The notes: generated by a model from the sequence alone, not told the origin. Shown: positions 33,044 to 60,441, counted from the stretch's first letter. The stretch is 64,000 nt of DNA from an uncultured bacterium (GCA_965531145.1 CBESOE010000004.1:24912-88911); one strand, 5' to 3'. Numbers and translations: made by a program.

Positions 33044-36000
33044 TCAGCGTTCCCTGCCGTCCCCGCCGGTGCTGGTCACCGATTCCGAGAAATCGATGGA
33101 CTGGAACCGGGCCAGCATGGTGCTGAAGGAGACCGTCTTGCCCGGCTCGGCATTGACCACGTCGATACGGAACGGCAGCCGGCCTTTGAGGAACAGTTCC
33201 TTGTCGCCACGGCTCTCGGTGCCGCGGAGATAGAACATGTCCTTTTCCAGACGCATCTTCACACCCAGTTGCTCGTAAGTGTAGCGGTCGAGCAGGGAGT
33301 GGAGCCCGCGGTCAAAGACCGTGATCCGGCCGCCGGTGCCGACGATGGCGATATTGTTTATCGCCTTGACATTTATGGTCTGGGCCACTCCCTTGCGCGG
33401 CACGGTGCGCATCTCCGCCCGGAACCCCACCGGCGTGCCGGCAAAGAGCCGGCAGTTGCTGACCCGCCCCTCGAGAATACCGCTGATCGCCCCGAAGTCG
33501 AATGTCCGGGTGACCTGGACCAGGTCGATCTCGCTGAACTCGGCGGAAAAGGAGAGGCGGGGATAGCGGGAGAGCACCTCCTCGCCGGAGATATCGCTGA
33601 TGATCACCTTCCCGCCAAACAGTGCCATCTCACCGCCACCGTCCACCCGCAAACGGGTGGGCGAAAGCTCCACCCGAGGCAGGTGCCCGTCCAGTTCGCC
33701 CTCGAACAGGGGCCAGTCCATCGCCCGGCTCAGTTCTCCCAGCTGCAGCCCGTCGATGGTCAACCCGGTCTCCAGGTAGCGGCTGTGGCCCAGCAGCCCG
33801 GCCAGGGTCAGCCGCTGGAAGGTGACCGTGCCGCCCAGCAGCGGCAAACTCTGCGAGGCCTCGAGGCTCACCGTGTCCCCCTGGACCACCAGGTCGGAGT
33901 CGGTCCGCTGAACGGTGACGGCGTCGAGCTTCAGCTCGTCAAAACCCATCCGCCCGTGCCGGGCAGCGCCGTCCACCGGCCTCACCCCGTCTTCCCCGGG
34001 CGGCCCCCAGACCAGGTCCAGCGGCAACTCCAGGTCCAGACCCCGCACCGCCATGGTCCGTTCCTCGCCGGTGAGGTCCAGGCCGTCCAGACGCACCCGG
34101 CCCTGGAGCGCGGCGCCCTCACCGTCCAGGTGTCCCTCGGCAAACACGTTGATGCGGCCGCCGGCGTCCAGACGCACCAGCAGCGGCAGCGAATCCCCCA
34201 GCGGCCGCCGGACGCAGCTCTCATAGGCCGAGGCCAGGTCATCCACCCCCAGGCTGGCCGAGAACCGGCGGTCAGGCTCTTCGCTGCCGGAGAAGGATGC
34301 CCGGAGGCGAAGTCCGGGGACCGGCTGCAGGTCGCCCTCGGCCCACCAGTGGCCGGCGCGATCCCCCTCTCCTTCCAGACCGGCGGCCAGACTGACCTGC
34401 GGCTCCAGCTCCCCGAAGTCGCCAAAGAGTGAGTCCCAGAGCAGCTGGAAGCCGCCGGCGGTAGTGGAAGCCTCCACCCGCAGGGAGCTGTCGGCACCGG
34501 CTTCCGCCTGCACCTGCCAGCTGGAGGCCAGGCCCTGAACCGCCCGGGCACCATCTTCCGAGGCGAACCAGGCCTGACCCATCTCCATGGTCCCGGCAGC
34601 TGTCCAGCCGTCCTTCTCGGAGTAGGCGGCATCTCCCCTGCCGCTGAGGGTGGCCTCCAGTTCGTATCCCGGCAGCAGTTCCCCGGTGAGGGGCACCAGT
34701 GCCCGGCGGATGGCCGGCAGATCAGCCTGGTCGAGACGCAGCGCCGCAGTGACCTGGGGCTCCTCGTCCGGGTTCCAGCGGCCATCGCCGGAGATCGTGA
34801 CCAGATCGCCCCATGTTGCCGTCCCGATTTCGAACCGGCCCTGGAGCGATACGGGATCGATCCAGCCCGAACCTGACAGGATCAGGGGCAACACTGACAA
34901 TGGCTTCGGTTGGAGATCGCCGCCGAGGCGCACACCGGGGAAGCGCAGGTTGTTCCGTTCTTCGAAGCGGAAGTCCGCAGCCAGCGTCCCCCCGTTCAAC
35001 GTCAGCGGGCAGGCCTGCCCACGGGCCGATTCGAGGCAGAAGTCCACGCCGTCCACATCCACCGTCCCCTCCACCAGCGGCTCGTCCAGGGTTCCGCTGA
35101 TCCGGCCGGCCGCCCGTGGCAGGCCGTCAAGCCGATACCGTTTCGATATGTTGAAACCAAAACCGGTTGCCGCCAGCCGGCGGAGGTCCGGGATGGACGG
35201 CCCGGTCCAGTTCCACTCCGCTGCCAGCCGGTTCTCCGAGGCACCGCCCAGCATCAACGATCCATCGGCGTGCAGGTCACCGGCCGATGCCGAGGTGAGC
35301 AGGGCCCGACCGGCGGTGAGCCAGTCGCCCGATTCCGTAACCTGCTCCAGAGTGCCCTGGTAGGTCAGGTCCAGCGGGCAGAGGCTGTCCAGTTGCCATT
35401 TGTCTCCGTCCGGCCTGTTCTGGCCACCCCGGAGCAGCGTCAGTGCTTCGGCCCGTGCCTCAAGACGGCAGAGCGGAGCCCCTCCGGTCGGCGCCCGCTC
35501 GAGGGTCAGCTCGGCCCGGCCCCCGCCCGTCACCCCTTCGGGCGCCAGGCCCAGGGCGAACAACAGCCGGACCGGGTCGCCGGTTTCCACGGTAGCGTTT
35601 TCAATCCGCATGTCCCTGCCGTCAGCCGCCATGCCCCCTTCGATGACCAGAGAGGCCAGTCCGGGCGCATCCGCATCAACGGTGTAGAGCCACGCCCCGT
35701 CCGAACCCTCCAGAAGGCGCAGGCTGAAGCCGGGAAATGCCAGCGGCTGGCGGTCCGGGTCACGGAATCCGATTTCGCCCCCGGCCCTGGCCTGGAGCGT
35801 GGCCGCAGCATCCGGAGGGTCGAACCGCACATCGATCTCCACGTCCGCCACCGGGCGGTGGAGATCGAGGGGCGTGTCTTCGACAAACCCGGCCACGTCC
35901 TCGGCCCCGGCCAGAAAGGAGAGCAGCGGGACCAGGGCCAGCTGCCCAGCCCGCAGTCGCACCTCACCACCAAGCCCCTGCCCCAGACCGGTGACCTCGC

Positions 36001-36454
36001 CGCTCACCTCGAACCGGCTCTCGCCCTCCCCGCCCAGCACAACGAGACGGCCGCCGGAGATCCCCAGCCGCCCCACCTCCACACTGGCCGGTTCCTCTCG
36101 GTCCGGCGGCGGCTCTTCACTCCCCCGCACCACGGCCACGACACCCTCCAGGACAAGCTCCTCGAAGCGGTTGTCGAGAATATCCCCAAGGCTGCCGGTG
36201 ACGATGAGCCGCTCCACTTCCAGCGATTCGAGCCAGGTGTATGAGTGTGCCCGACGCAGGTGGAGATCGTGGAGGATAAAGGTCCGCCGGTCATGCAGTT
36301 CCAGCCGGCCCAGATCGACATTGGCGTCCAGGGCCCGGGCCAGTGCCGACCGGACCTGGCGGCGGGGCCAGTCGCGGGCCAGCCAGACGGTGAGGGCCGC
36401 CGCCAGCACCATGGCCAGGACGATCCAGATCAGGATGCGGTACCGCTTTTTCAT
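33044..36454 (-). CDS. AsmA-family, YdbH-like large inner-membrane-anchored protein (candidate intermembrane lipid-transfer protein)
   Basis: 1136 aa; N-terminal TM anchor MKKRYRILIWIVLAMVLAAALTVWLA; long beta-rich periplasmic region; located immediately upstream of the YnbE/YdbL-like gene (ydbH-ynbE-ydbL synteny). Confidence 0.6.
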   Translation of the reverse strand: MKKRYRILIWIVLAMVLAAALTVWLARDWPRRQVRSALARALDANVDLGRLELHDRRTFILHDLHLRRAHSYTWLESLEVERLIVTGSLGDILDNRFEELVLEGVVAVVRGSEEPPPDREEPASVEVGRLGISGGRLVVLGGEGESRFEVSGEVTGLGQGLGGEVRLRAGQLALVPLLSFLAGAEDVAGFVEDTPLDLHRPVADVEIDVRFDPPDAAATLQARAGGEIGFRDPDRQPLAFPGFSLRLLEGSDGAWLYTVDADAPGLASLVIEGGMAADGRDMRIENATVETGDPVRLLFALGLAPEGVTGGGRAELTLERAPTGGAPLCRLEARAEALTLLRGGQNRPDGDKWQLDSLCPLDLTYQGTLEQVTESGDWLTAGRALLTSASAGDLHADGSLMLGGASENRLAAEWNWTGPSIPDLRRLAATGFGFNISKRYRLDGLPRAAGRISGTLDEPLVEGTVDVDGVDFCLESARGQACPLTLNGGTLAADFRFEERNNLRFPGVRLGGDLQPKPLSVLPLILSGSGWIDPVSLQGRFEIGTATWGDLVTISGDGRWNPDEEPQVTAALRLDQADLPAIRRALVPLTGELLPGYELEATLSGRGDAAYSEKDGWTAAGTMEMGQAWFASEDGARAVQGLASSWQVQAEAGADSSLRVEASTTAGGFQLLWDSLFGDFGELEPQVSLAAGLEGEGDRAGHWWAEGDLQPVPGLRLRASFSGSEEPDRRFSASLGVDDLASAYESCVRRPLGDSLPLLVRLDAGGRINVFAEGHLDGEGAALQGRVRLDGLDLTGEERTMAVRGLDLELPLDLVWGPPGEDGVRPVDGAARHGRMGFDELKLDAVTVQRTDSDLVVQGDTVSLEASQSLPLLGGTVTFQRLTLAGLLGHSRYLETGLTIDGLQLGELSRAMDWPLFEGELDGHLPRVELSPTRLRVDGGGEMALFGGKVIISDISGEEVLSRYPRLSFSAEFSEIDLVQVTRTFDFGAISGILEGRVSNCRLFAGTPVGFRAEMRTVPRKGVAQTINVKAINNIAIVGTGGRITVFDRGLHSLLDRYTYEQLGVKMRLEKDMFYLRGTESRGDKELFLKGRLPFRIDVVNAEPGKTVSFSTMLARFQSIDFSESVTSTGGDGRER

Positions 36455-38306: not shown

Positions 38307-38597
38307 ATGAAAGGGCGTCGTCAAAAGCACCAGCGCGGCGGCTGCGGCAAGGGGCTGAAAGGTCCCGATATCCCGCTCGATACGATCCGGGTTTCCCAGG
38401 AAGCGGTGATCACCTCTTTCGACGCCCTCAACGGCGAGGCCGCACGGCTTCGCGACCTGGGGATTCGGGAGGGAAGCCGGGTGCGCATCATCCTCAGCAG
38501 CCCTAACCAGATGATCGTGGCCGTTGACCAGGCGCGTGTCGGGCTGCCCAAGAAGGTGGCCAGCCTGGTGCTGGTGCGCCAGGTCACACCGGCCTGA
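38307..38597 (+). CDS. feoA: Ferrous iron transport protein A (FeoA family)
   Basis: SH3-like FeoA pattern ...LDALNGEAARLRDLGIREGSRVRIILSSPNQMIVAVDQARVGL...; GGAGGAG RBS; directly upstream of feoB. Confidence 0.75.
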   Translation: MKGRRQKHQRGGCGKGLKGPDIPLDTIRVSQEAVITSFDALNGEAARLRDLGIREGSRVRIILSSPNQMIVAVDQARVGLPKKVASLVLVRQVTPA

Positions 38598-38642
38598 TCC
38601 CCCGCCCGCCTGTATAGACCGGTTTCACCACGAAACAGGAAG

Positions 38643-40922
38643 ATGTTCGACAAACCCAACCGGCCCAGGGACCAGCACACCGGCAGCGACGTGCCGCCCG
38701 GTACCGATACCGCCCGGGAGGGGGGCGCCTTTCTGGTGGCCATCGCCGGGAACCCCAACGTGGGCAAGACCACGGTCTTCAACCAGCTCACCGGTATGCG
38801 GCAGAAGGTGGGCAATTACCCTGGAATTACCGTCGAACGAAAGACCGGTTACCTCACCGCCCCGGACGGCCGGCGGATCGAGGTGGTTGACGTGCCCGGC
38901 ACGTACAACCTCCACCCCAAGGCGCTGGACGAAGAGGTGGCCTACCGGGTGCTCATCGGGGCCATCGAAGGGGGCCGGGCGCCCGATCTGGCGGTCTGTG
39001 TCGTGGACGCGGCCAACCTGGAGCGAAACCTCTACCTCGTCTGCCAGATCCTCGACCTCGGGTTGCCCACCGTGGTGGCGCTGAACATGATGGACGCGGC
39101 CGAAGGGGCCGGGCTGAAGATCAACGTGGAGCGGTTGAGCCGTGAACTGCGGGTTCCGGTGATTCCCATGGTGGCCTCCAGGGGAACCGGTATTGCCGAG
39201 TTGAAAGATGCGGTGACCGGGTCGCCGCCGGCCTGCCCGCCACGGCGGTGGCACCTGGAACCGCAGGTGCAGCAGGAGGTCGATGCCCTGGCCGACCGCC
39301 TGGGCCGCGAGCTGCCCGATCTGACCGAACCCCAGCGTTTTGTCGACGCGTTGCGCGCGGTGGCCCACGAGGGGGCCGCCTTCTTCGAGACCCACCACGA
39401 CCAGGCCTTCTGGGAAGAGGTGAAGCGGGCCCGCGCCCGGCTGGAACAGGCCGGGGTGGCCTTTGAGCAGGCCGGGGTCAGCGGCCGCTACGCCTGGCTG
39501 TCACCGCTGGTCAGCAAGGTGGTCCGTCACCGCCGCGCCCCACGGCTCACCGGCAGCGACCGGGTGGACGCGGTGGTGACCCACCCGGTGGCGGGGCCGC
39601 TGATCTTCCTCCTGCTGCTGATGCTGATCTTCCAGTCGGTGTTCACCGCCGCCGTGCCGTTGATGGACGGCATCGATTTCGGGGTGAGCGCCATCAGCGA
39701 GTGGCTGGAACGGGTCCTCCCCGCCGGCATGCTGACCAGTCTGCTGGTGGACGGGGTGGTGGCCGGATTCGGAGCGGTGGTGATCTTCCTGCCCCAGATT
39801 CTGATCCTCTTCTTCTTCCTCGGACTGATGGAGGACAGCGGCTACATGGCCCGGGCCGCCTTTATCATGGATCGGCTGATGCGGCGGTTCGGGATGAGCG
39901 GCCGCTCGGTGGTCCCCCTGGTCAGCTCCTTTGCCTGCGCCGTGCCGGGGATCATGGCCACCCGGAACATCGAAAACCACCGCGACCGGCTGGTGACCAT
40001 CCTGGTGGCGCCGCTGCTCACCTGCTCGGCTCGCCTGCCGGTCTACACGCTGCTCATCGGCGCCTTTGTCCCCCAGGCCTACTTCCTCGGCATCTTCGGC
40101 TACCAGGGCTCGGTACTGCTGAGCCTCTACCTGATGGGGATATTCTTCGCCGTGCTGGCCGGCGCCATCCTGCGCCGCTTCGTGCTCCGCGGCGAGCACA
40201 CGCCCTTCATCATCGAGTTGCCCCCCTACCGGGCGCCCCGGCTCCGCGACGTCCTGTTCCAGATGATGGAACGGGCCTGGCTCTTTGTCACCCGCGCCGG
40301 TGCCATCATCGTCTCCATCAGTATCGTCCTCTGGTTCCTGGCCAGCTTCCCCGACCCGGGGAGCAAGCCGGGCCTGGAAGCGGCACGGGAGCAGTTGCTC
40401 TCGGCCCGCCAGGCGCAGAACGGGCCGGTCACCGATGCTGAAGCGACGGAGCTGGCGGCAGCGCTGGCCGGCCTTGACGGTGAGGAAGCTCGCTACCGGG
40501 TGGCCCACAGTTACATCGGCCGCATGGGGCGGCTGATCGAACCGGTGATCGCACCGCTGGGATTCGACTGGAAAATCGGCGTGGCCCTGATCTCCAGCTT
40601 CGCCGCCCGGGAGGTGGCGGTGAGCGCCCTGGGCACCATCTACAGCATCCAGGACGCGGACGAGGGGAGCGAGAGCCTGCGCGAACGGATCCGCAACGAC
40701 GTCAACCCGCGCACCGGCAAACCGGTGTTCACCCCGCTGGTGGCCTTCAGCCTGATGATCTTCTACGTTCTGGCCTGCCTCTGCATGAGCACCCTGGCCA
40801 TCGTCAAACGCGAGACCAACAGCTGGCGCTGGCCGCTGTTCATGCTCGGCTACATGACCGTGCTGGCCTACGTCGCCTCACTGGTCACCTTCCAGGGCGG
40901 CCGGCTGCTGGGATGGGGATAG
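38643..40922 (+). CDS. feoB: Ferrous iron transporter FeoB (G-protein domain plus polytopic membrane domain)
   Basis: G1 motif VAIAGNPNVGKTTVFNQLTG; G2/G3 ...DVPGTYNL...; gate motifs and 8+ TM helices in the C-terminal region; 759 aa. Confidence 0.95.
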   Translation: MFDKPNRPRDQHTGSDVPPGTDTAREGGAFLVAIAGNPNVGKTTVFNQLTGMRQKVGNYPGITVERKTGYLTAPDGRRIEVVDVPGTYNLHPKALDEEVAYRVLIGAIEGGRAPDLAVCVVDAANLERNLYLVCQILDLGLPTVVALNMMDAAEGAGLKINVERLSRELRVPVIPMVASRGTGIAELKDAVTGSPPACPPRRWHLEPQVQQEVDALADRLGRELPDLTEPQRFVDALRAVAHEGAAFFETHHDQAFWEEVKRARARLEQAGVAFEQAGVSGRYAWLSPLVSKVVRHRRAPRLTGSDRVDAVVTHPVAGPLIFLLLLMLIFQSVFTAAVPLMDGIDFGVSAISEWLERVLPAGMLTSLLVDGVVAGFGAVVIFLPQILILFFFLGLMEDSGYMARAAFIMDRLMRRFGMSGRSVVPLVSSFACAVPGIMATRNIENHRDRLVTILVAPLLTCSARLPVYTLLIGAFVPQAYFLGIFGYQGSVLLSLYLMGIFFAVLAGAILRRFVLRGEHTPFIIELPPYRAPRLRDVLFQMMERAWLFVTRAGAIIVSISIVLWFLASFPDPGSKPGLEAAREQLLSARQAQNGPVTDAEATELAAALAGLDGEEARYRVAHSYIGRMGRLIEPVIAPLGFDWKIGVALISSFAAREVAVSALGTIYSIQDADEGSESLRERIRNDVNPRTGKPVFTPLVAFSLMIFYVLACLCMSTLAIVKRETNSWRWPLFMLGYMTVLAYVASLVTFQGGRLLGWG

Positions 40923-42270: not shown

Positions 42271-42774
42271 ATGGCCAGGGAAGAATCACTCAGTGCCAGC
42301 CTCGAAGACTACCTGGAGGCCATCTTCCTCATCATTGCCGAAAAAAAGGTGGCCCGGTCCAAGGACATCACCAAAAAACTGGGGGTGAGCGGGGCCTCGG
42401 TCACCGGTGCTCTGCGGGCCCTGGGCGAACGCGGCCTGATCAACTACGCCCCCTACGACGTGATCACCCTCACCGACCACGGCGAGGAACTGGCCCGGAA
42501 CATCGTCCTGCGCCACGATACGTTGAAGAACTTCTTCCACAAGATCCTCTTCATCGACGAGGCCGAAGCGGAACGCTCCGCCTGCGAAATGGAGCACTCC
42601 CTCTCCCGCCCCATCCTGCACCGCATGGTTTCCTTCATCGAGTTCATGGAGAACTGCCCGCTGGCCGGCGTGGAGTGGGCCGAGGGCATCGGCTTCCGCT
42701 GCTCCCACGGCGAGAGGATCGAAAACTGCCAGCGCTGTCAGGAAGAGTGGAAGGAAAAGGAACCGGACGCCTGA
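42271..42774 (+). CDS. DtxR/IdeR/MntR family metal-dependent transcriptional repressor
   Basis: N-terminal HTH (LEDYLEAIFLIIAEKKVARSKDITKKLGVSGASVTGALRALGERGLI); metal-binding and dimerisation region (...DEAEAERSACEMEHSL...); 167 aa; divergent from the OMT gene, next to feoAB. Confidence 0.85.
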   Translation: MAREESLSASLEDYLEAIFLIIAEKKVARSKDITKKLGVSGASVTGALRALGERGLINYAPYDVITLTDHGEELARNIVLRHDTLKNFFHKILFIDEAEAERSACEMEHSLSRPILHRMVSFIEFMENCPLAGVEWAEGIGFRCSHGERIENCQRCQEEWKEKEPDA

Positions 42775-51460: not shown

Positions 51461-52603
51461 ATGCAGCGAGCAGCATTTTCCAGAACGGCAGCAGCGCAGA
51501 GATACGGGATACTCATCCTTCTGGTCGTTTTCTATCTCATTACCGGAGCGGTGGCAACAACGGCATCTGCCGATGAGACCACCTGCTCTGCCTGTGGCAA
51601 GACCATCCGCGGGGAGTACCTGGTTCTCGATGGTCACCCCTATTGCAGCCAGAACTGTATCGACGCGGTGCTCCCGGCCTGTGCGGTCTGTGGCGAGGCG
51701 ATCAGGGGCCCCTACCTGACCTTTGACGGCAGGCGGTACTGCAGCCAGGCCTGCCTGGACCGGAATCTGCCGGCCTGCGACATGTGCGGGCGTCCGGTGC
51801 AGGGTCAGTATTTTGAGAGCAAGGGGAAAACATACTGCAGCGATGACTGCTACCAGCTCTCGCTTCCCCGCTGCGAGGCCTGCGGCGAAGGGATGAAGGA
51901 GTGGCTGGAAATCGAGGGTCGGCTCTACTGCCACCCCTGCGCGGCCAGACAGCGTTGTGACGTCTGCGGCCACCCCGGGCAGACGTACGGCCTGGGCGAC
52001 GGACGGCGGATCTGCTCCCTCTGCCGGGAGACGGCGGTGATGGATCAGGCCGACGCCGAACAGCTCTTCCAGATGGTGCGCAAACGGATGGACCGCTCGC
52101 TTGACCTCGCCACCGACCACGAGATCGAGTTCCACCTGGTGAGCCGCGACGACCTGGACCGGATCAGCAACGGCTCTTCCAGCGGCCGGGAACTGGGCTA
52201 CTACCAGTACCAGGCCGAAACCACCACCACCTACCTCACCACCCGCGACCGCTACGGTCGGGAAGACAAACGGGTGGCCGGCGAGAAGACCGACAAGAAG
52301 TTCCGCATCTATGTTCTCTACGGGCTGCCGGAAAAACGACTGATGGAGGTGACGGCCCACGAACTGGCCCACGACTGGATGTATGCCAACCTGCCGCGGA
52401 TCAAGGCCCCGATCTTTGAAGAGGGATTTGCCGAATACGTGGCCTGGCTGGTCAATGACCGCTTTGGCCACGAAAAGCTGAAGATACGGATCGAAGAGAA
52501 CAGTGACCCGATCTATGGCGACGGCTTCCAGATGATGAAGGGCCTGGCTGACCGGTATGGCGGCCTCGACGGTCTGATCGGGTATCTCGACGAACTTCCC
52601 TGA
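51461..52603 (+). CDS. Membrane-anchored DA1-like protein: five tandem LIM-type single zinc fingers plus a C-terminal HExxH metallopeptidase domain
   Basis: TM anchor ILILLVVFYLITGAVATTASA. Five C-x2-C-x(13-15)-[HC]-x2-C units (CSACGKTIRGEYLVLDGHPYCSQNC; CAVCGEAIRGPYLTFDGRRYCSQAC; CDMCGRPVQGQYFESKGKTYCSDDC; CEACGEGMKEWLEIEGRLYCHPC; CDVCGHPGQTYGLGDGRRICSLC). HELAHDWMY close to the DA1-family HEMMHAW motif. Confidence 0.7.
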   Translation: MQRAAFSRTAAAQRYGILILLVVFYLITGAVATTASADETTCSACGKTIRGEYLVLDGHPYCSQNCIDAVLPACAVCGEAIRGPYLTFDGRRYCSQACLDRNLPACDMCGRPVQGQYFESKGKTYCSDDCYQLSLPRCEACGEGMKEWLEIEGRLYCHPCAARQRCDVCGHPGQTYGLGDGRRICSLCRETAVMDQADAEQLFQMVRKRMDRSLDLATDHEIEFHLVSRDDLDRISNGSSSGRELGYYQYQAETTTTYLTTRDRYGREDKRVAGEKTDKKFRIYVLYGLPEKRLMEVTAHELAHDWMYANLPRIKAPIFEEGFAEYVAWLVNDRFGHEKLKIRIEENSDPIYGDGFQMMKGLADRYGGLDGLIGYLDELP

Positions 52604-52841
52604 ACACCACCACTCGCCGGCAAAACCTCCGCGCGGCCATCATCACGGCACACCCTCGAATTTCCAGTAGTCCACTTTTTTTATCCTCCATACACGAAAA
52701 ACTCAACGACGAATTCGTCATCGAATTTCAATTTCGAAAGTGATCCTGAACCACATGCCAACAGAATGACATTTCACTCGCTAACAAAATGAAATCAATA
52801 AGCTTAACTCGTTAATAGACCGTCACTTACTTGGAACGGTT

Positions 52842-52879
52842 CCGTGCCGGAGCCTTCACCGGCAATGGCACGGTTTTTG
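52842..52879 (+). terminator. Candidate intrinsic terminator / leader hairpin between the DA1-like gene and the cytochrome promoter
   Basis: CCGTGCCGG...CCGGCAATGGCACGG imperfect hairpin followed by TTTTTGT; ~240 nt downstream of the stop at 52603 and just upstream of TTGATAG / TATATG promoter-like hexamers. Confidence 0.35.
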
Positions 52880-52946
52880 TATCCTATTTGATAGATATTC
52901 ACTGTGGTATATGTAGGCATTAATTAGTATTCAATGATGTGAACCA

Positions 52947-55502
52947 GTGAAGGAGGATATCTTGTCATTCTATCCCGGCCGCAGCCTTCCGGAGAACGAC
53001 CCTCAACGGCCGTCCAGGACAGCCGGACGGGATAGTACGCTGCTTGATAATCCGTGGCTCCGATCAGCCCTGTTCCTGATCCTCTTCGCCGCCCTCTTCT
53101 TCTTCACCACCGGGATGAACGGCGAGGACGATTATCCCCACGGCGAGTTCGACGAAGACTGCACACTCTGTCACGGTGATGAAGATTGGCTGCCGGTGGT
53201 GATTTCGCCGGAGTTCGACCACGACGAGGTATCCGGCTTCACCCGGCGCGGAGCGCACCTCGACCTGGGCTGCCCCGCCTGTCACAAGAGCCTCAACTTC
53301 GCCGAGGCGCCCCGGGAGTGCGCCGGCTGCCACCTCGACGTGCACATGGGCGAGCTGGGCTCGGACTGCGGACGCTGCCATGAGATTTACAGTTTCATCG
53401 ACAACGCAAGCTGGCTGCGCCGGCACAGTTCCACCCGGTTTCCGCTCACCGGCAGGCACCTCACCGCCGACTGCGAGGAGTGCCACCCGCCCCAGCCCCA
53501 GGGCCGGCTGATCTGGGTCAACCGGCCGGTGGACTGTTTCGCCTGCCATAGGGAAGAATATGAAGGGACGGGCAATCCCGACCACCGCGCTGCCGGATTC
53601 CCCACTGGTTGCGAGCAGTGCCACTCCACCAGCAGTTGGACCACGGGCAGTAGCAGCAGCGGTCACAGCGGGTTCCCGCTCACCGGCGGGCACACCGGTC
53701 TCGATTGCGACCTCTGCCACATCGACGGTGTGTACGAAGGCACACCCACCCACTGCTTCGGTTGCCACCAGGACGACTACAACCGGGAGCACGCCGGCAG
53801 CGGCTTTCCCACCGACTGCACCCAGTGCCACTCCACCAGCGACTGGGACGCAGAGGAGACGGGGCACACCAGCTTCCCGCTCACCGGGGCCCACGCCCCG
53901 CTGGACTGTGACGCCTGCCACGCCAACGGGGTCTACGAAGGGACACCCAGCGACTGCTACGCCTGCCACCAGGACGACTACGACCAGACCGACGACCCGG
54001 ACCACCAGGCCGCCGGCTATCCCACCGACTGCGACCAGTGCCACTCCACCAGCAACTGGGATGCCGAGGACGCGCACACCAGCTTCCCGCTCACCGGCGG
54101 GCACGGCGGTCTCGACTGCAACGACTGCCACGCCAACGGTATCTACCAGGGAACGCCCACGAACTGCGTGGCCTGCCACCAGGACGACTACAACCGAGAG
54201 CACACCGGCAGCGGCTTTCCCACCGACTGCACCCAGTGCCACACAACGGCAACCTGGGAGGGAGCCACCGATCACTCGTCGTTCCCGCTCACCGGGGCCC
54301 ACGGCACACTGGACTGCGACGCCTGCCACGGCAATGGGGTCTATGAGGGGACACCCACCGACTGCTACGACTGCCACCGCAGCGACTACGACCAGGAGCA
54401 CGCCGGCAGTGGCTTCTCCACTGACTGCACCGAGTGCCACACCACCAGCAACTGGGATGCCGACATCGATCACACCGGCTGGCCGCTCACCGGCGCCCAC
54501 GCTGCTGTGGACTGCAGCCTCTGCCACATCAACGGGGTCTACGAGGGGACACCCACCGACTGCTGGTCCTGTCACAGCAGCGAGTACAACGAGGAGCACA
54601 GCGGCAGCGGCTTCCCCCATGACTGCACTGAATGCCACACCACATCCAGCTGGGACTCGGAGGATGCGCACACCGACTTCCCGCTCACCGGCGGGCATGG
54701 CGGCCTGGACTGCAACCTCTGCCATCCCGGCGGGTCCTACCAGGGGACACCCACCGACTGCTGGTCCTGTCACCAGGAGGACTACGAAGACGAGCATGCC
54801 GGCAGCGGCTTCCCCCACGACTGCACCGAGTGCCACACGATCAACGACTGGGACGCCGATTTCGCCCACACCACCTGGGCCCTCAATGGCGCCCATGCTT
54901 CGGTGGCCTGCAACGACTGTCATGAAAACGGCGTCTACGAAGGAACGCCCACCGACTGTTTCGATTGCCACCAGCAGGACTTCAGCGGTGAACATGGCGG
55001 GGAGGGATACCCCCACGACTGCCTGCTCTGTCACGACGAGAACAACTGGGACTCCGATTACGACCACGACTCGGTCTGGCCGCTCACCGGCGAGCACCGC
55101 TTTGCCAACTGCACCGAGTGCCATATCAACGATGTGTACCAGGGGACACCCACACTCTGCTACGACTGTCACCGGGAAGATTACGAGGACGAGCACTCCA
55201 GCAGCACGCCCCACCAGTGCGAGGAGTGTCACAACACCAGTGACTGGGATGATGCCAACAGCCGGGCCGCCATGCCGAACCACGACGCGCTGTTCCCCAT
55301 CCACTCCGGCCGGCACCGCAACCTCTGGTTCTCCTGCAAGGACTGTCATCCGAACAAGAAGAACCCGTCCGTGTTCACCTGCGCCGGCTGTCACTCCCCC
55401 GGTGACCACCCGGCCTCCGGCCTGAAAAAAGCGGGCCCGGCCCCCTCTGTTTTCAGAAGCGTGGACCGGGACTGCCTGGTCTGCCATCCGAGGGGGGACT
55501 GA
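52947..55502 (+). CDS. Multihaem c-type cytochrome with 34 CxxCH motifs, N-terminal membrane/signal anchor
   Basis: 34 CxxCH motifs counted in 851 aa (CTLCH, CPACH, CAGCH, CGRCH ... CAGCH, CLVCH), many as paired CXXCH ~10 aa apart with abundant extra His for bis-His ligation. Hydrophobic N-terminal segment SALFLILFAALFFFTTG. Likely real start is TTG at 52962, 5 nt after a strong GAAGGAGGA SD; the track used GTG at 52947. Confidence 0.8.
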   Translation: MKEDILSFYPGRSLPENDPQRPSRTAGRDSTLLDNPWLRSALFLILFAALFFFTTGMNGEDDYPHGEFDEDCTLCHGDEDWLPVVISPEFDHDEVSGFTRRGAHLDLGCPACHKSLNFAEAPRECAGCHLDVHMGELGSDCGRCHEIYSFIDNASWLRRHSSTRFPLTGRHLTADCEECHPPQPQGRLIWVNRPVDCFACHREEYEGTGNPDHRAAGFPTGCEQCHSTSSWTTGSSSSGHSGFPLTGGHTGLDCDLCHIDGVYEGTPTHCFGCHQDDYNREHAGSGFPTDCTQCHSTSDWDAEETGHTSFPLTGAHAPLDCDACHANGVYEGTPSDCYACHQDDYDQTDDPDHQAAGYPTDCDQCHSTSNWDAEDAHTSFPLTGGHGGLDCNDCHANGIYQGTPTNCVACHQDDYNREHTGSGFPTDCTQCHTTATWEGATDHSSFPLTGAHGTLDCDACHGNGVYEGTPTDCYDCHRSDYDQEHAGSGFSTDCTECHTTSNWDADIDHTGWPLTGAHAAVDCSLCHINGVYEGTPTDCWSCHSSEYNEEHSGSGFPHDCTECHTTSSWDSEDAHTDFPLTGGHGGLDCNLCHPGGSYQGTPTDCWSCHQEDYEDEHAGSGFPHDCTECHTINDWDADFAHTTWALNGAHASVACNDCHENGVYEGTPTDCFDCHQQDFSGEHGGEGYPHDCLLCHDENNWDSDYDHDSVWPLTGEHRFANCTECHINDVYQGTPTLCYDCHREDYEDEHSSSTPHQCEECHNTSDWDDANSRAAMPNHDALFPIHSGRHRNLWFSCKDCHPNKKNPSVFTCAGCHSPGDHPASGLKKAGPAPSVFRSVDRDCLVCHPRGD
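53547..55227 (+). repeat. Coding tandem repeat: ~9 copies of a ~60-aa three-haem module
   Basis: Recurring unit GFPTDCTQCHSTSDWDAEETGHTSFPLTGAHAPLDCDACHANGVYEGTPSDCYACHQDDY with conserved F-P-L-T-G-[GA]-H and G-T-P-[TS]-D-C spacing. Confidence 0.75.
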
Positions 55503-57154
55503 TGATGAACAGCAGAACCCTCTTCACCGTGGCAATACTCCTGGCCCTCACTACCCTGATCACAGCTCGGCCACTGGCCGCCGCGGAAGCCGAACAGGCC
55601 ACCTGCCAGGTGACCTATCTCACCGGCAGTTCGGTCTACATCGACGCCGGCAGCGAGGACGGCCTGCGTCCCGGCGACCTGGTGGAACTGCTCAGCGGTG
55701 AGCAGGTGGTCATGGTGCTCCGGGTGCGCGACGTCTCCAGCCGCAAGGCGGCCTGCGTCCCCCAGGACCAGGAACTGGCCCTGGCCGGCCTGGTCAATGC
55801 CGGCGATACCGTGCGCTATGTCAAACACACCGCCGAGGCCTCAGCAGACCCGGCCGCTGCCGCGGGAGCGGTGGCCGGACAATCGGCCGGCGGCGCGGAG
55901 ACCGAAGAGCACAACGTGCCGGCGGATTCATCCGACGCCACCATCTTCGGCGGCCTGCGCGGGCGGGTGGGCCTGGCCTACCTGATGGTCAACGACAATG
56001 AGAACGACAGCGGCGGGTTCAGCCGGCCGGCGGTCACCCTGCGTCTCGACGGTGAGCACCTGGGTGACTCACCGTTCAGCATCCACATCGACACCCGGAT
56101 GCGGCGCACCACCAGCAACGTCGACGACGAAGCGGTGAACCGCGCCCGGGTCTACCGCTTCTCCGCCGAATACCAGCGACAGGGGTCGCCATACCGCTTC
56201 TCCCTGGGCCGGCAGTACTCGCCGGGGCTCTCCGGACTGACCCTCTTTGACGGCCTGCTGGCCGAGCGGCGCACCGACAAATGGGCCTTCGGCCTTTTCG
56301 GCGGCACCCAGCCCGACTACGAGGACTACACCTTTTCCTCGGACACTACCCAGTACGGCCTCTACGCCCAGCGGACCAGTCTTCCCGGCGCGGAGAAGCA
56401 GTGGGATCTGACCGCCGGTCTGGCCGCCACCTACGGCAAGGGCGAGGACTTCCGCGAGTTTCTCTTTCTCCAGGCCAACTACTTCACCCGGCGGCTGACC
56501 CTCTCCTTCAACCAGGAGGTGGACTTCAACCGCGACTGGAAATCGGACGCCGGGGAGAGCACGGTCCAGCCCACCAGCACCTTTGCCATCGCACGCTACC
56601 GGGTGGGCGACAACGTGACGCTGAACATCGGCTATGACGACCGGCGCCAGGTGATGCTCTACCGCGAGTTCGAGAACCCGGAGACCGAGTTCGACGACGA
56701 CAACCGGCAGGGGCTGTGGGGCGGGGTCGACGTGAGCTTCCTCAGGCGCTACCGCGCCGGGGTGCAGTATCGCGGTAACAGCGGTGGCGATGCCGGCAGT
56801 TCCAACTCCTACACCCTGACCCTGGGGGCGGCGGACCTCTTCCCCTTCCACCTCGACATCGGGGCACGTTCCACCCGTTTCGAGAACGACCGCTCGGAGG
56901 GCTGGCTCAACTCGCTGAACCTCTACCTGCCGGTGGGCCGGCGCACCCAGTTCTCGCTCTACGGGGGGCTGCGCCAGGATGAATACCCCAACGCGCTCAG
57001 CTCGGACCTGACCAGCCAGGACCTGGTCTGGTATGGCGCGGAGATGAACCTCCGCCTGGGCCGGTCGTGGTTCTTCCTCATCTCACTGGAACGGAATTCC
57101 GGAGACACCGAGGACTTCGACCAGCTCTACACCATGATCAGCTACCGGTTTTGA
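55502..57154 (+). CDS. Outer-membrane beta-barrel protein co-transcribed with the multihaem cytochrome (candidate porin partner)
   Basis: ATG overlaps the cytochrome TGA (ATGATGA). Signal peptide MMNSRTLFTVAILLALTTLITARPLAAAEA; ~120-aa N-terminal soluble segment; then alternating-pattern strands rich in Y/G/R/D; C-terminal ...YTMISYRF. Confidence 0.7.
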   Translation: MMNSRTLFTVAILLALTTLITARPLAAAEAEQATCQVTYLTGSSVYIDAGSEDGLRPGDLVELLSGEQVVMVLRVRDVSSRKAACVPQDQELALAGLVNAGDTVRYVKHTAEASADPAAAAGAVAGQSAGGAETEEHNVPADSSDATIFGGLRGRVGLAYLMVNDNENDSGGFSRPAVTLRLDGEHLGDSPFSIHIDTRMRRTTSNVDDEAVNRARVYRFSAEYQRQGSPYRFSLGRQYSPGLSGLTLFDGLLAERRTDKWAFGLFGGTQPDYEDYTFSSDTTQYGLYAQRTSLPGAEKQWDLTAGLAATYGKGEDFREFLFLQANYFTRRLTLSFNQEVDFNRDWKSDAGESTVQPTSTFAIARYRVGDNVTLNIGYDDRRQVMLYREFENPETEFDDDNRQGLWGGVDVSFLRRYRAGVQYRGNSGGDAGSSNSYTLTLGAADLFPFHLDIGARSTRFENDRSEGWLNSLNLYLPVGRRTQFSLYGGLRQDEYPNALSSDLTSQDLVWYGAEMNLRLGRSWFFLISLERNSGDTEDFDQLYTMISYRF

Positions 57155-57160
57155 GGCTGG

Positions 57161-58230
57161 TTAAAATCCACCGGCAGCCACAGTCGCTCCATATTTCCAA
57201 TCGGCGGGAAAGGCCTGCAATGAAAACTGCAGGTGCATCCGGGACCCGTCATAACTGTACACATTGACCGGTGATCCGGTTGACGGGTCCGGCCCGGGGC
57301 CCACCACCACTTCATTCCGCCAGTCACCGTCCAGATCGGCGGTGGCACAGACCTTCGCCCCGTACCGCACCTGGCTCGGCAACCAGGCAAAGAAGTTGAA
57401 CCCCGGCAGTTCGGTCACCGCTGTCCCGTCGTAGTTCCAGCCCCGGACATGGGCCCCGAAGGCCGCACCCGGGCCCGCACCGGTGACCAGCTCGTCCAGC
57501 CCGTCACCGTCCACGTCACCACAGGTGACATTCACGCCGTATTCGTTGGTCCCGTATGCGAAGAAACTCACCGCCGGAATGGCCTCGGCCGGACCGCCGT
57601 CCACATTCCACCCCCTGACGTGGGGACCGAATATCGTACCGGGCCCGGCGCCGGTGACGATCTCGTCATACCCGTCGCCGTCGATGTCCCCGGCGGCCAC
57701 GTTCACCCCCCACTGGATGGTACCGTAGGCAAAAAAGTTGACCCACGGGGATGGGGCCGCACTGCCGCCGCCGCCGTACTGGACCAGGTCGAACGCGCGG
57801 ACGTGCGGGCCAAAAACCCGCCCCGGTCCGGCGCCGGTGATCACCTCCCACGCCTCGTCATCGTCGATATCACCGGCACAGACGTTCACCCCGTATCGGG
57901 GTGTGCCGTAGGCAAAGAAGTTGAGCCCGGGCACCGGCACCCCATCCACCGTGAATCCCCGAACGTGGGGGCCGTAGATCTCACCAGGCCCGGCGCCGGT
58001 GAGCACTTCATCCACCTGGTTGCCGTCCACATCGCCGCAGCTCACATTTACTCCGTGGCTGGGGGCGCCATAAGCGGTGAACTCGCTGGTGTGGGTTGCG
58101 TCCTGCTGTGGCGGGAAGGTGCGCACCAGGGGCGGATTGGTGAGGCCCGGGCCAGGGCCGGCGACCAGGCCGGGGGTGGTGATCGGCGATGATTCACCCT
58201 TGTACAGCGCACTGTAATGCCGGGTCAGGT
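57161..58230 (-). repeat. Coding tandem repeat: FG-GAP blades (C-terminal propeller module, copy 3 of 3)
   Basis: Same family as 8229..9266 and 9941..11030; produces the antisense ORF 57449..58192 (+) in the track. Confidence 0.75.
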
Positions 58231-59549
58231 TGATGAACTGGTCGTTGTACTCGGCGGAGTCGCAGACATCAGTCCCCTCGTAGAACTCGTTCCAAGTCTC
58301 GATGGCGATCATCGGTACCCCCGAGGCGATGGCCGCTTCCCAGCTCTGCCGGTAATAGCGTCCGCCCTCCCGGTCGCGGTAAGAAGGCGGGTAGCGCACC
58401 GATGAATCATCGTACCCCGGACCCACGGCAGCGGTCTCCAGCAGTCGGGGCCCGTTCAGCGCCGCCCCCCACTGGTAACGGCTGTCGGTATCCACATTCC
58501 AACTGGCCTCCCGTACGATATACGGGGCCACACCGAATTGAAGCTGGAACTGCTCCTCCAGCTGATCGATGGACCACTGGTTGTAGTTGCCGGCAAAGTG
58601 GCTGGCGTACAACTGGATCAGCGGGCGGCCGTCCACCGTGGCCCGCAGCTCGTCCGGCACCATGTCGAAAAAGTCTCGTACCGTCCGCCAGAAAAATCCG
58701 TGCGGTTCCGCGGCGGTGATGTCCAGACCGGGGTTGAGGCTGGCCTCGTACGATTCATCGACGAACTGCAGCATTGCGTCTCGCGAGCCGCCCCCGGTGA
58801 GAAAGTCGAGCCAGTAGAGATATCCCGTGCTGTCCGGTTCCCGGCCGAGGATCAGCTCGAAGGTGTCGTTGACGAATTCGGTGTCGCTGACGATCAGTGC
58901 GCCGTAAGCCGGGGAGTCGAGAATGCCGCCGATGAACTCCCGTCTGGTAATCCCCCCCCAGCCCAGGGCCAGCACCCCCTCCTCCAGTTCGAACAGATCG
59001 GGCGTGCGGTTGAGCAGCACCGTGTAGCAGCGGATAACAAAGTGGCTGTCCGACAGGAACTGCACCGCCCGGTAGCTGCAGCGCACGTAACGGTGCTGGT
59101 CGTAGTCGTAGGTCACCGGGTTCATGGTCAGGGTGACCGTGTCGTAAAACATGCCGATCTTCGGCGGAGTCTCCCCCGCGGCCGCCATCTGCTGCGCGGC
59201 CTGCACCAGCAGTTCCAGGCCTTCATTGCTCCAGTAGTTGTAGCGGGCGGCGCTGTGCGGAAAGCCCCAGTAGACCGGCAGCACCACGTCAATGCCGGCC
59301 TCGCTCATCCGGCGGAGATTGAAGGTGTACCAGGGCAGGGATCTCCACCAGAGGGGGGTCCCGGCAGGGAGCCAGGGGTGGTCGGACATCTCCCCCGGAT
59401 TCTCGTGATACCAGTAGAAGAAGTAGGTGGTGACCAGCTTCTCGTCCACCGGCACCGTGTCCGGCTCCGCCGAGAGAGGCACCGTAACCAGGACAAAACA
59501 GACCAGACAGAAACCTGCAATGTGCAACGATCTGGTCAGGCCGGCCATG
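57161..59549 (-). CDS. Secreted protein: N-terminal glycosidase-like domain with a DUF4214 insert plus C-terminal FG-GAP beta-propeller
   Basis: Start at MAGLTRSLHIAGFCLVCFVLVTVPLSA (signal peptide) inside track ORF 57161..59719. DUF4214-like LGREPDSTGYLYWLDFLTGGGSRDAMLQFVDESYEA. C-terminal blades GVNVSCGDVDGNQVDEVLTGAGPGEIYGPHVRGF ... ending KYGATVAAGGF. Confidence 0.75.
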
Positions 59550-59559
59550 TCGACATTCT

Positions 59560-60441
59560 TCAAGGGACGCTCCCCGTCACAGTGCAGCTGTCCGTATCGG
59601 TAACTCCCGACGGGAGGTAGGGTGGCTGGTTGTAAGGGGCGGGTGTGACGTCTTCGGCAACCAGGGTGAACACGTTTGGGCCCTTCAGTGGCCCGAGCAG
59701 AGGAAGATACTGATTCCATTCCTCGGTGAACTGCCGTCCGGCGTGCAGGTTCATAAACCCCGAGCGCCAGTTGGAGAACACGTATCCACCGGCCAGCTCC
59801 ACATCGATCCGTGCGGAGTATCGCCTGACCTGACCGCCGTAAAGGTTCTTCAGGTTGGCGTTCATGTGGACGTTCAGGGGCAGCGATCCCACGGGCGGGT
59901 CACATTGGAGAGTGGCCTGCAGAAACTCGTCGCAGGAGACCCAGGTGTGAAAGTTGAAATCACCGGCGTAATAATTGCCATCCCGGTAGCCGTGACCCGC
60001 CCCATAGCAGCCGCTGGAGACGGCCGTCCAGGCAAGATTGTGTGTCTCGGAGATGACCTCGATCACATATGTGCTCCCCGGTGTGAGGGGGATGGGCAAA
60101 TTGAAAGCACAGGGAACCCACTCGGTGTACACACCGGACCGCGGAATGAAGGTGACCGAACTGCCAGCCACAATAGGCCCGTCGATTACATTTTCATGGA
60201 GCAAAACGGTCACGGGGAGGTGATTACCAGGATTCGAGGAAGACAGCCGCAGATCGAGGCCAACATGCTCGGATTCGCTGGGCACGAAAGATTGTCCCAT
60301 GGGCATGGAGTTGACGATGGGCCATGCGGAATTCCATGGATCCGTGCACTCCTGATCCACGCAGCCGGCGAAGAGCGGCGAACATGAAAGAAGGGCGAGT
60401 GAGAGAATGAGAACCATGCGAATTGACGACTTCAATTTCAT
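59560..60441 (-). CDS. Hypothetical secreted lipoprotein-like protein
   Basis: Signal peptide MKLKSSIRMVLILSLALLSCSPLFAGC (lipobox-like LFAGC); 293 aa; no family motif recognised. Confidence 0.5.
   Translation of the reverse strand: MKLKSSIRMVLILSLALLSCSPLFAGCVDQECTDPWNSAWPIVNSMPMGQSFVPSESEHVGLDLRLSSSNPGNHLPVTVLLHENVIDGPIVAGSSVTFIPRSGVYTEWVPCAFNLPIPLTPGSTYVIEVISETHNLAWTAVSSGCYGAGHGYRDGNYYAGDFNFHTWVSCDEFLQATLQCDPPVGSLPLNVHMNANLKNLYGGQVRRYSARIDVELAGGYVFSNWRSGFMNLHAGRQFTEEWNQYLPLLGPLKGPNVFTLVAEDVTPAPYNQPPYLPSGVTDTDSCTVTGSVP

Follow-up and report, generated by a model that had tools for sequence, protein, structure and literature searches.

What does a bacterium do with a c-type cytochrome carrying 34 CxxCH haem-binding motifs, when the gene for it runs directly into the gene for an outer-membrane beta-barrel? 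We met this arrangement at positions 52947-57154 of a stretch of 64,000 nucleotides (nt) from an uncultured bacterium (GCA_965531145.1, CBESOE010000004.1:24912-88911). This whole stretch was analysed and is called the window below, and the cytochrome gene is called cytB. Our comparisons suggest that the gene pair encodes that part of a porin-cytochrome electron conduit which lies at the outer membrane, made of components not previously described, and we consider this reading reasonably probable. As judged from sequence, it is well supported by comparative genomics. The initial annotation had already proposed a conduit unlike MtrAB, OmaB/OmbB/OmcB or Cyc2; every test that we ran supported this proposal, while we infer that the cytochrome is inserted into the barrel and in which direction the electrons run.

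The pairing of the two genes is conserved over a wide phylogenetic range. Homologues of the barrel were collected by a word-indexed search, which returned 35 proteins, every one of them unnamed, and by a full hidden Markov model (HMM) search of 1.84 billion cluster representatives, in which 2932 barrel clusters were found at E<=1e-3, 1781 at E<=1e-10 and 865 at E<=1e-30. Scanning one genome per species with a 7-sequence barrel alignment, and assigning phyla by record title, gave 72 loci (39 in Gemmatimonadota, 16 in Acidobacteriota including Polarisedimenticolia, 13 in Eisenbacteria, 1 in Krumholzibacteriota and 3 in others), all of them from metagenome-assembled genomes. An open reading frame (ORF) with at least eight CxxCH motifs stands directly 5' of the barrel gene, on the same strand, at 64 of 75 distinct loci, the window included. 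Eight of the other 11 loci begin at a contig edge, one looks frameshifted, one is that of the most remote barrel member (23% identity), which has a 52-haem ORF directly upstream, and the last is L017. Counted over the informative loci, a CxxCH-rich ORF directly precedes the barrel at 65 of 67, in at least four phyla, and the cytochrome-barrel unit first noticed in one genome has turned out to be a pairing conserved across several phyla. By these sequence comparisons the locus has the adjacency by which a porin-cytochrome conduit is recognised, the genes for a secreted multihaem cytochrome and a barrel standing side by side in separate lineages. The trivial explanation of a chance ORF in GC-rich DNA is ruled out by the motif content and by homologues down to 23% identity. 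At three loci with 58-64-haem cytochromes (L029, L032 and L054) there is a gap of about 820-870 nt before the barrel match, into which an extra small gene could fit.

The two genes of the window are also tightly joined. The reading frame of the cytochrome (52947..55502, + strand) is open from a GTG and would in that form encode the 851 amino acids (aa) initially described; its 34 CxxCH motifs stand, but the length probably does not. The strong Shine-Dalgarno (SD) sequence AAGGAGG reported for this gene is present, but it lies at 52950-52956, inside the GTG frame and 5 nt before a TTG at 52962. For this reason the cytB product likely begins at TTG 52962 and has 846 aa, which is also the length of the public gene call (GCA_964623175.1, CAZUSZ010000005.1). 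All 68 cysteines of the ORF sit in CxxCH motifs, 40 further histidines are left as possible distal (sixth) ligands, and a scan of every frame found no other ORF with more than one CxxCH in the window. The overlap of the cytochrome TGA with the barrel ATG was borne out: the stop codon (55500-55502) and the start codon (55502-55504) share one base, the A at 55502, and the SD-like GAGGGGGG precedes the ATG. At all six gene-called loci the cytochrome and barrel genes are 2 nt apart or overlapping, the relatives having either a 2-nt gap or a 4-nt overlap. From about 52680 on, the region upstream of cytB aligns at 67-69% to the spacer that separates the 20-haem from the 37-haem cytochrome gene in two relatives (L001 and L077); therefore, the cytochrome-barrel pair is a unit with an upstream region of its own. 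A search of this region for a sigma-70 consensus found none.

The cytochrome appears to be exported. Its hydrophobic N-terminal stretch, previously taken for an anchor, probably forms the core of a Sec signal peptide rather than a permanent anchor, given that the homologues carry at the same place a short, canonical and cleavable-looking Sec signal peptide, which leads directly into a conserved (N/Y)PHGxFxxxCxxCH. By the same comparison with homologues an export signal, and with it a secretion route, is present for the cytochrome. The clade of the window is set apart by an unusually long hydrophilic N-terminal region ahead of the hydrophobic stretch.

Past the signal peptide the protein is modular. 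About nine trihaem modules had been counted at the outset; we find eight clear repeats of 66 aa, flanked by N-terminal and C-terminal modules of distinct sequence (Table 1). Internal alignment A3 gives the repeats a mean column identity of 59%, and in each unit three CxxCH motifs and three extra histidines are invariant, the consensus being ..H.sFPLTGaH..lDCxxCH.nGvYeGTPtdCxxCH..DY..EH.gsGFP.DCxxCH. Because the whole protein has only four methionines, bis-His ligation at all haems is the simplest reading of the residue counts. Pfam matches it to Cytochrome_C7 at 3.3e-34 (over five stretches) and to Cytochrom_c3_2 at 1.2e-25, and curated cutoffs are exceeded by PF14522 (Cytochrome_C7, 116.9 bits, cutoff 24.8), PF14537 (90.2 bits, cutoff 25) and PF02085 (48.4 bits, cutoff 22.9). 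The other matches comprise a weak Pfam hint of MtrC/F domains and, in NCBIfam, QrcA and HmcA far below threshold. Over the two database searches together, the CxxCH repeats belong to electron-transfer families of the c7/c3 type and to no reductase subunit family. The NCBIfam model nanowire_3heme (TIGR04257, cutoff 40 bits) did not match the window cytochrome at E<=0.01, nor did the DmsE/MtrA decahaem model TIGR03508 (cutoff 192 bits), and a sequence search of the PDB returned no significant solved chain for either the whole protein or its repeat profile.

Comparison with the relatives indicates how such a long cytochrome is put together. Among 53 intact upstream cytochromes, which have about 24.4 aa per haem, 46 contain a number of CxxCH motifs of the form 3n+1 (13, 16, 19, 22, 25, 28, 34, 37, 40, 43, 52, 58, 61 or 64), and four more reach such a number via a single CxxxCH or CxxxxCH site. 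The minimal form of 13 haems has 316 aa and consists of the N-terminal module, one repeat and the C-terminal module. The window cytochrome aligns to this 13-haem form at both ends and also along the repeats in shifted registers, and therefore proteins of the cytB type change in length by whole trihaem units. Long poly-haem proteins with the cytB repeat are very common, with more than 6000 matches at E<1e-20 in many phyla, nearly all of them annotated as hypothetical.

The downstream gene encodes a protein of 550 aa, in which sequence and an AlphaFold model together recovered every feature initially ascribed to it: the signal peptide, the barrel strands, the N-terminal soluble domain and the C-terminal YRF. 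The model, built on a 35-sequence alignment, has a mean predicted local distance difference test score (pLDDT) of 83.2. It comprises a signal helix, a small all-beta domain, a disordered linker (Table 1) and 22 strands over residues 152-549, which DSSP assigns mostly at pLDDT >90. A barrel of at least about 16 strands had been asked for, and 22 lies above this number. The general traits of Gram-negative outer-membrane barrels are all there, namely a signal peptide, an even number of antiparallel strands and a C-terminal aromatic residue, R549 and F550 being conserved in the family. The standard barrel formula gives a C-alpha diameter of about 40 A for 22 strands, compared with 31-33 A for 16-18 strands and 47 A for 26. 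The strands are connected by 3-14 aa, with the exception of one 24-aa loop holding PETEFDDxxRxG, the most conserved motif of the family, which strand parity in the model would place on the outer face. From the loop lengths in the model, the lumen is predicted to be open and free of a plug.

No known family accounts for this barrel. Neither Pfam at E<=0.01 (MtrB_PioB, PF11854, included) nor NCBIfam contains a family matching the 550-aa protein, the family profile had no match by sequence in the PDB, and the fold search matched it to no specific solved structure. That search returned generic barrels only: the best Foldseek matches are the PapC/FimD ushers, at a template modelling score (TM) of about 0.4, and MtrB appears as one more generic match and not as the closest. 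AlgE, Wzi, BcsC and PgaA are among the fold matches as well, and glycosyltransferase genes lie nearby; a role in polysaccharide export was nevertheless rejected, as only the linkage to the cytochrome is conserved across phyla.

The small domain in front of the barrel has its own conserved core (Y46, A49, G50, G54, C85 and G101 are invariant) and resembles FlgT_C, the Pfam threshold of which is reached by one family member, P0156. Other arrangements occur in P0189, P0195, P0172 and P0156, which carry, on long linkers rich in Pro and Ala, an AMIN domain or a FlgT_C-like domain in duplicate; AMIN is a domain type linked to peptidoglycan association. The likeness to FlgT_C and these extra copies or AMIN domains on linkers are the reasons why the N-terminal domain fits a periplasmic tether. 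The linker itself differs in length and sequence across the family. Cys85 (55754-55756) is the sole cysteine conserved in every member, and in many of them the mature protein has no other; in the partner cytochromes no cysteine is left over.

Most relatives present the pair as part of a five-gene order: a flavoprotein, a membrane protein with a di-haem-b motif, a cytochrome of 20 or 23 haems, the variable cytochrome and the barrel. Where more than 7 kb of upstream sequence was available, the membrane protein was found at 43 of 46 loci and the flavoprotein at 42 of 46, both on the same strand and 5' of the cytochromes. The constant cytochrome has its own signal peptide, the motif SPGPLxxxH and either 23 haems (28 loci) or 20 (12 loci). 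Against TIGR04257 the upstream cytochromes of the relatives score 17-19 bits, where 40 would be needed. All five genes are present in the closest relatives of the window (75-79% barrel identity), between the same flanking genes, and the last two genes alone are found in the window and in one other lineage (72% barrel identity). The architecture stated initially, a single giant cytochrome plus a barrel, is thus true of the window, but it is an atypical, reduced form of the five-gene module of the relatives.

The two additional membrane-bound components have a recognisable build. The membrane protein of about 290 aa has five hydrophobic segments, and 45 sequences without exception have its two histidine pairs, H92/H106 and H262/H276; the members of a pair are 14 residues apart, and the pairs lie on two of the hydrophobic segments, which at the level of sequence is the classic di-haem-b pattern. 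Pfam gives weak, sub-threshold hints only (DUF4405, cytochrome b561). The flavoprotein of about 434 aa consists of an N-terminal membrane anchor with a positively charged cluster after it, a ferredoxin-like domain and a flavin adenine dinucleotide (FAD)/NAD(P)H domain; it is nearest to NADPH reductases of the YpdA/TrxR type (5e-31), and its score of 173 bits with TIGR04018 is under the cutoff. Both of its ferredoxin motifs are without the usual second cysteine (CIGTSAC..CP and CIGHGAC..CP). At least 8000 homologues of the flavoprotein exist at E<1e-60 in KSB1, Calditrichota, Deferribacteres, Krumholzibacteria and others, annotated only as NAD(P)-binding or YpdA-like; two NCBI-sourced homologues that we looked up come from two other genomes, neither of which is the present one. 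In the loci examined the flavoprotein gene is usually paired with the di-haem-b-motif gene (L077, 3077-4378 and 4383-5249; also L001, L002, L004, L083 and L085), and at least at L085 the two stand without adjacent cytochromes. Judging from these sequences, the flavoprotein and the di-haem-b-motif protein may constitute a general, unrecognised transmembrane electron module.

If the pair is indeed the end of a conduit, it could work as follows. The 34-haem protein would be exported by Sec and matured in the periplasm, and its c7-like trihaem chain, with bis-His ligation and about 23 residues per haem, should form a continuous haem wire. The overlapping downstream gene would let the barrel be made in fixed proportion to the cytochrome. 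A wide 22-strand lumen with short loops and no plug would find its simplest explanation as a sheath around a single end of the cytochrome, and electrons would cross the outer membrane through it from haem to haem; the periplasmic domain of the barrel, on its flexible linker, would tether or dock periplasmic partners. In the relatives, gene order and domain content suggest a route that would start at NAD(P)H in the cytoplasm and lead over flavin, iron-sulfur and haem b into the two cytochromes and then outside, with the cytochrome-barrel pair as the distal end of the five-gene chain. Of these five genes, the lineage of the window would have retained the last two alone, together with the upstream region that belongs to them, and therefore its electrons would have to come from other periplasmic carriers. 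We infer that the flow is outward and that reducing power is disposed of to extracellular acceptors. A more ambitious version, which we put forward tentatively and hold to be rather doubtful as a whole, would make the entire route a self-contained, quinone-independent path from cytoplasmic NADPH to the exterior, running via the flavoprotein, the di-haem-b protein, the cytochrome of fixed length and a single-polypeptide haem cable (3n+1, 13-64 haems) that passes through and partly beyond the barrel; the window would then hold a detachable cable-plus-barrel unit.

Several observations weigh against a conduit. None of the flavoprotein, the di-haem-b protein and the 20/23-haem cytochrome is encoded in the window, and no electron input for the two-gene form was found there. 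A motif scan, the only search made for it, found no CcmF/CcsA-type WWD motif in these 64 kb either, in keeping with the initial statement that the window has no cytochrome c maturation genes. It is the 20/23-haem cytochrome of the relatives, and not cytB, that faintly resembles DmsE/MtrA (the 20-haem form scores a sub-threshold 49.9 bits with TIGR03508), which bears on the question of which of the two enters the barrel. No lipobox was seen in cytB and no surface-display route is evident, and at L017 the barrel stands without neighbouring cytochromes. The lumen might be occluded by the conserved 24-aa loop or by the N-terminal domain. Finally, AlphaFold gave for the 846-aa cytochrome (15-sequence alignment) a model with a pLDDT of 43 and a predicted template modelling score of 0.20, which was too poor to be used, and for this reason the rod shape and haem spacing of cytB are assumed by analogy with c7-type polymers.

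One could argue that the barrel is mainly an export pore or anchor, comparable to a pilus usher or a two-partner secretion pore, and that a folded, rod-like cytochrome is threaded through it to become a mostly extracellular nanowire of a single polypeptide, with the 20/23-haem cytochrome, where present, spanning the periplasm. Such a division of labour would fit the variable length of the cytB type (13-64 haems) next to an upstream cytochrome fixed at 20 or 23, and at about 1 nm per haem, a rule of thumb from the GSU1996 structure, the longest forms would far exceed the width of the periplasm; the gene order, too, matches the proposed path from inside to outside. However, the usher matches are weak (TM about 0.4 at 10-13% identity) and the plug and chaperone-binding domains of ushers are absent, no precedent is known to us for a haem-loaded cytochrome passing a single barrel, and the 34-haem protein of the window clade does without a periplasmic partner encoded alongside. 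We find it unlikely that export is what the barrel is mainly for.

Two further explanations do without a haem wire through the barrel. In one of them, which seems to us quite improbable, the barrel holds no cytochrome and is a wide diffusion channel through which a redox substrate in soluble or colloidal form (chelated Fe(III)/Fe(II), Mn or humic material) enters the periplasm, to be reduced or oxidised there by the cytochromes. Reductive iron acquisition of this sort would agree with the FeoAB and DtxR-type repressor genes found 10-17 kb upstream, but this linkage is local synteny common to close relatives; moreover, an unplugged 22-strand barrel with loops of 3-14 aa would have, as porins go, an exceptionally large opening, and strict one-to-one coupling to a cytochrome across phyla is typical of structural partners. 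In the other, the cytochrome is a periplasmic electron store (a capacitor) or a scaffold for redox enzymes, the barrel serves only to fix it to the outer membrane, across which no electrons pass. The poly-c7 cytochromes of Geobacter have been discussed as stores of electrons in the periplasm (PMC10138318), and most of the more than 6000 related long poly-haem proteins, spread over many phyla, are probably without this barrel. On the other hand, a mere anchor has no need of 22 strands, and the conserved order of five genes, which begins with a cytoplasmic flavoprotein and finishes with an outer-membrane protein, suggests transport through the envelope; we regard pure storage or scaffolding as very improbable.

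The favoured porin-cytochrome conduit is of a known kind, and what is new here is probably the barrel family, the modular cytochrome coupled to it and the five-gene module; we found no description in the literature of the barrel family, of a coupled 3n+1 modular cytochrome or of the module. With MtrCAB, MtoAB and PioAB (Shewanella, Sideroxydans, Rhodopseudomonas) the window shares a cytochrome gene that is directly 5' of the barrel gene and tightly linked to it, a barrel that is in principle wide enough for a chain of haems, and a presumed electron transfer across the outer membrane. The components differ. The barrel has no Pfam MtrB_PioB match and adds an extra periplasmic domain to its 22 modelled strands, whereas MtrB has 26 strands in its published structure; the cytochrome has 34 haems (13-64 across the family) in trihaem c7-like repeats, in contrast to the 10 haems and the different fold of MtrA; and there is no lipoprotein cytochrome for the cell surface as in systems of the MtrCAB type. 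The Geobacter clusters OmaB-OmbB-OmcB and ExtABCD, and clusters known from peat, are similar in combining cytochromes with a sequence-divergent barrel in synteny, in uncultured or non-model phyla. Geobacter porin-cytochrome systems have cytochromes of 8-13 haems and a lipoprotein outer cytochrome, and the present system is set apart from them by these descriptions. The four clusters of the peat preprint (10.64898/2026.05.27.727921) are different ones, found in Terriglobia (Acidobacteriota) and Verrucomicrobiota and equipped with 8-13-haem cytochromes, and they indicate that divergent porin-cytochrome clusters are now found repeatedly; Gemmatimonadota, Eisenbacteria and Polarisedimenticolia are not mentioned in the preprint.

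For each half of the relatives' system there is a further counterpart. The poly-c7 nanowire cytochromes of Geobacter (GSU1996, GSU0592 and GSU2210) likewise have tandem trihaem c7-type domains in one polypeptide, and the Cytochrome_C7 match of cytB is a strong one. Proteins of the GSU1996 type are soluble and periplasmic, with 12-27 haems, some of them His-Met ligated; cytB, in contrast, has four methionines and histidines enough for bis-His ligation throughout, and its gene is coupled to that of a barrel. The inner-membrane part of the relatives' module is reminiscent of NADPH oxidase/ferric reductase (NOX/FRE), in which the path to the outside likewise has an NADPH-type flavoprotein followed by a membrane protein with two histidine pairs on two helices. 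Unlike in NOX/FRE, the components are separate polypeptides with an inserted ferredoxin-like domain, and their genes are absent from the window.

Table 1. Features of the cytochrome-barrel locus, in window coordinates
Feature	Position	Strand	Basis
AT-rich region 5' of cytB, presumed promoter and leader	52604..52961	+	alignment to relatives; SD at 52950-52956
cytB, c-type cytochrome with 34 CxxCH, 846 aa, likely TTG start	52962..55502	+	mechanical ORF from GTG 52947; Pfam; public gene call
cytB hydrophobic segment RSALFLILFAALFFFTT, residues about 34-50	53061..53111	+	hydropathy peak; homologue signal peptides at the same place
cytB N-terminal module, haems 1-7, begins PHGEFDEDCTLCH	53136..53639	+	aligns to N-terminal part of 13-haem members
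Eight tandem units of about 66 aa, three haems each (haems 8-31)	53640..55268	+	internal alignment A3
cytB C-terminal three-haem module, FPIHSGRHRNLW..CKDCH..CAGCH..CLVCHPRGD	55269..55499	+	family-wide conservation including 13-haem forms
Translational coupling site: SD-like GAGGGGGG, cytB stop, barrel start	55490..55504	+	
550-aa outer-membrane protein, unnamed family	55502..57154	+	no Pfam/NCBIfam match; homologues by word and HMM search
Barrel signal peptide, about residues 1-28, ...RPLAAA/EAEQ	55502..55585	+	sequence; helix 5-20 in model; cleavage site predicted
Small all-beta periplasmic domain, residues 32-107, holds C85	55595..55822	+	model, pLDDT about 85
Ala/Gly/Glu-rich linker, predicted disordered	55823..55954	+	pLDDT <50 at residues 112-145
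22-strand beta-barrel, residues 152-550, ends ..SYRF	55955..57151	+	DSSP of AlphaFold model

The surroundings of the locus deserve a short description. Directly upstream of the cytochrome locus, in the window (51461-52603, +) as in all close relatives, lies a gene for a protein with Cys-rich LIM-like zinc-finger repeats and a DA1-like peptidase domain; the window copy has 380 aa, an N-terminal hydrophobic segment and Pfam matches to DA1-like (6e-08) and LIM (8e-06). These are domain types best known from eukaryotes. Genes for the FeoA/FeoB ferrous-iron transporter and a DtxR-type iron-dependent repressor are located at 38307-40922 (+) and 42271-42774 (+), 10-17 kb 5' of cytB, and at least the repressor is also found upstream in the nearest relative; a link of this neighbourhood to the reduction of iron for uptake is possible. 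On the other side of the barrel gene, and convergent to it, a gene at 57161-59719 (-) encodes an 852-aa protein with DUF4214, a DUF5010/GH99-like domain and FG-GAP repeats, which is conserved at this place only in the closest relatives. Further away, at 33044-36454 (-), there is an ORF of 1136 aa that is a gene in the public record, where no Pfam family is listed for it.

Soils, sediments and wastewater commonly harbour Gemmatimonadota, Acidobacteriota and Eisenbacteria, and little is known about how these exchange electrons with minerals or organic matter. The barrel family is invisible to Pfam and NCBIfam, and surveys based on Mtr, Pcc or Cyc2 models would probably miss it. The compact two-gene unit of the window lends itself to heterologous expression. 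Should the pair be a conduit, these phyla would possess a widespread and previously uncounted route for extracellular electron transfer, and the cytochromes of the family would offer a natural graded series of haem wires, from 13 to 64 haems, for the study of electron transfer over long distances. In that case, the five-gene form of the relatives would suggest a direct pathway from NADPH to the outside of the cell, in which the quinone pool is bypassed.

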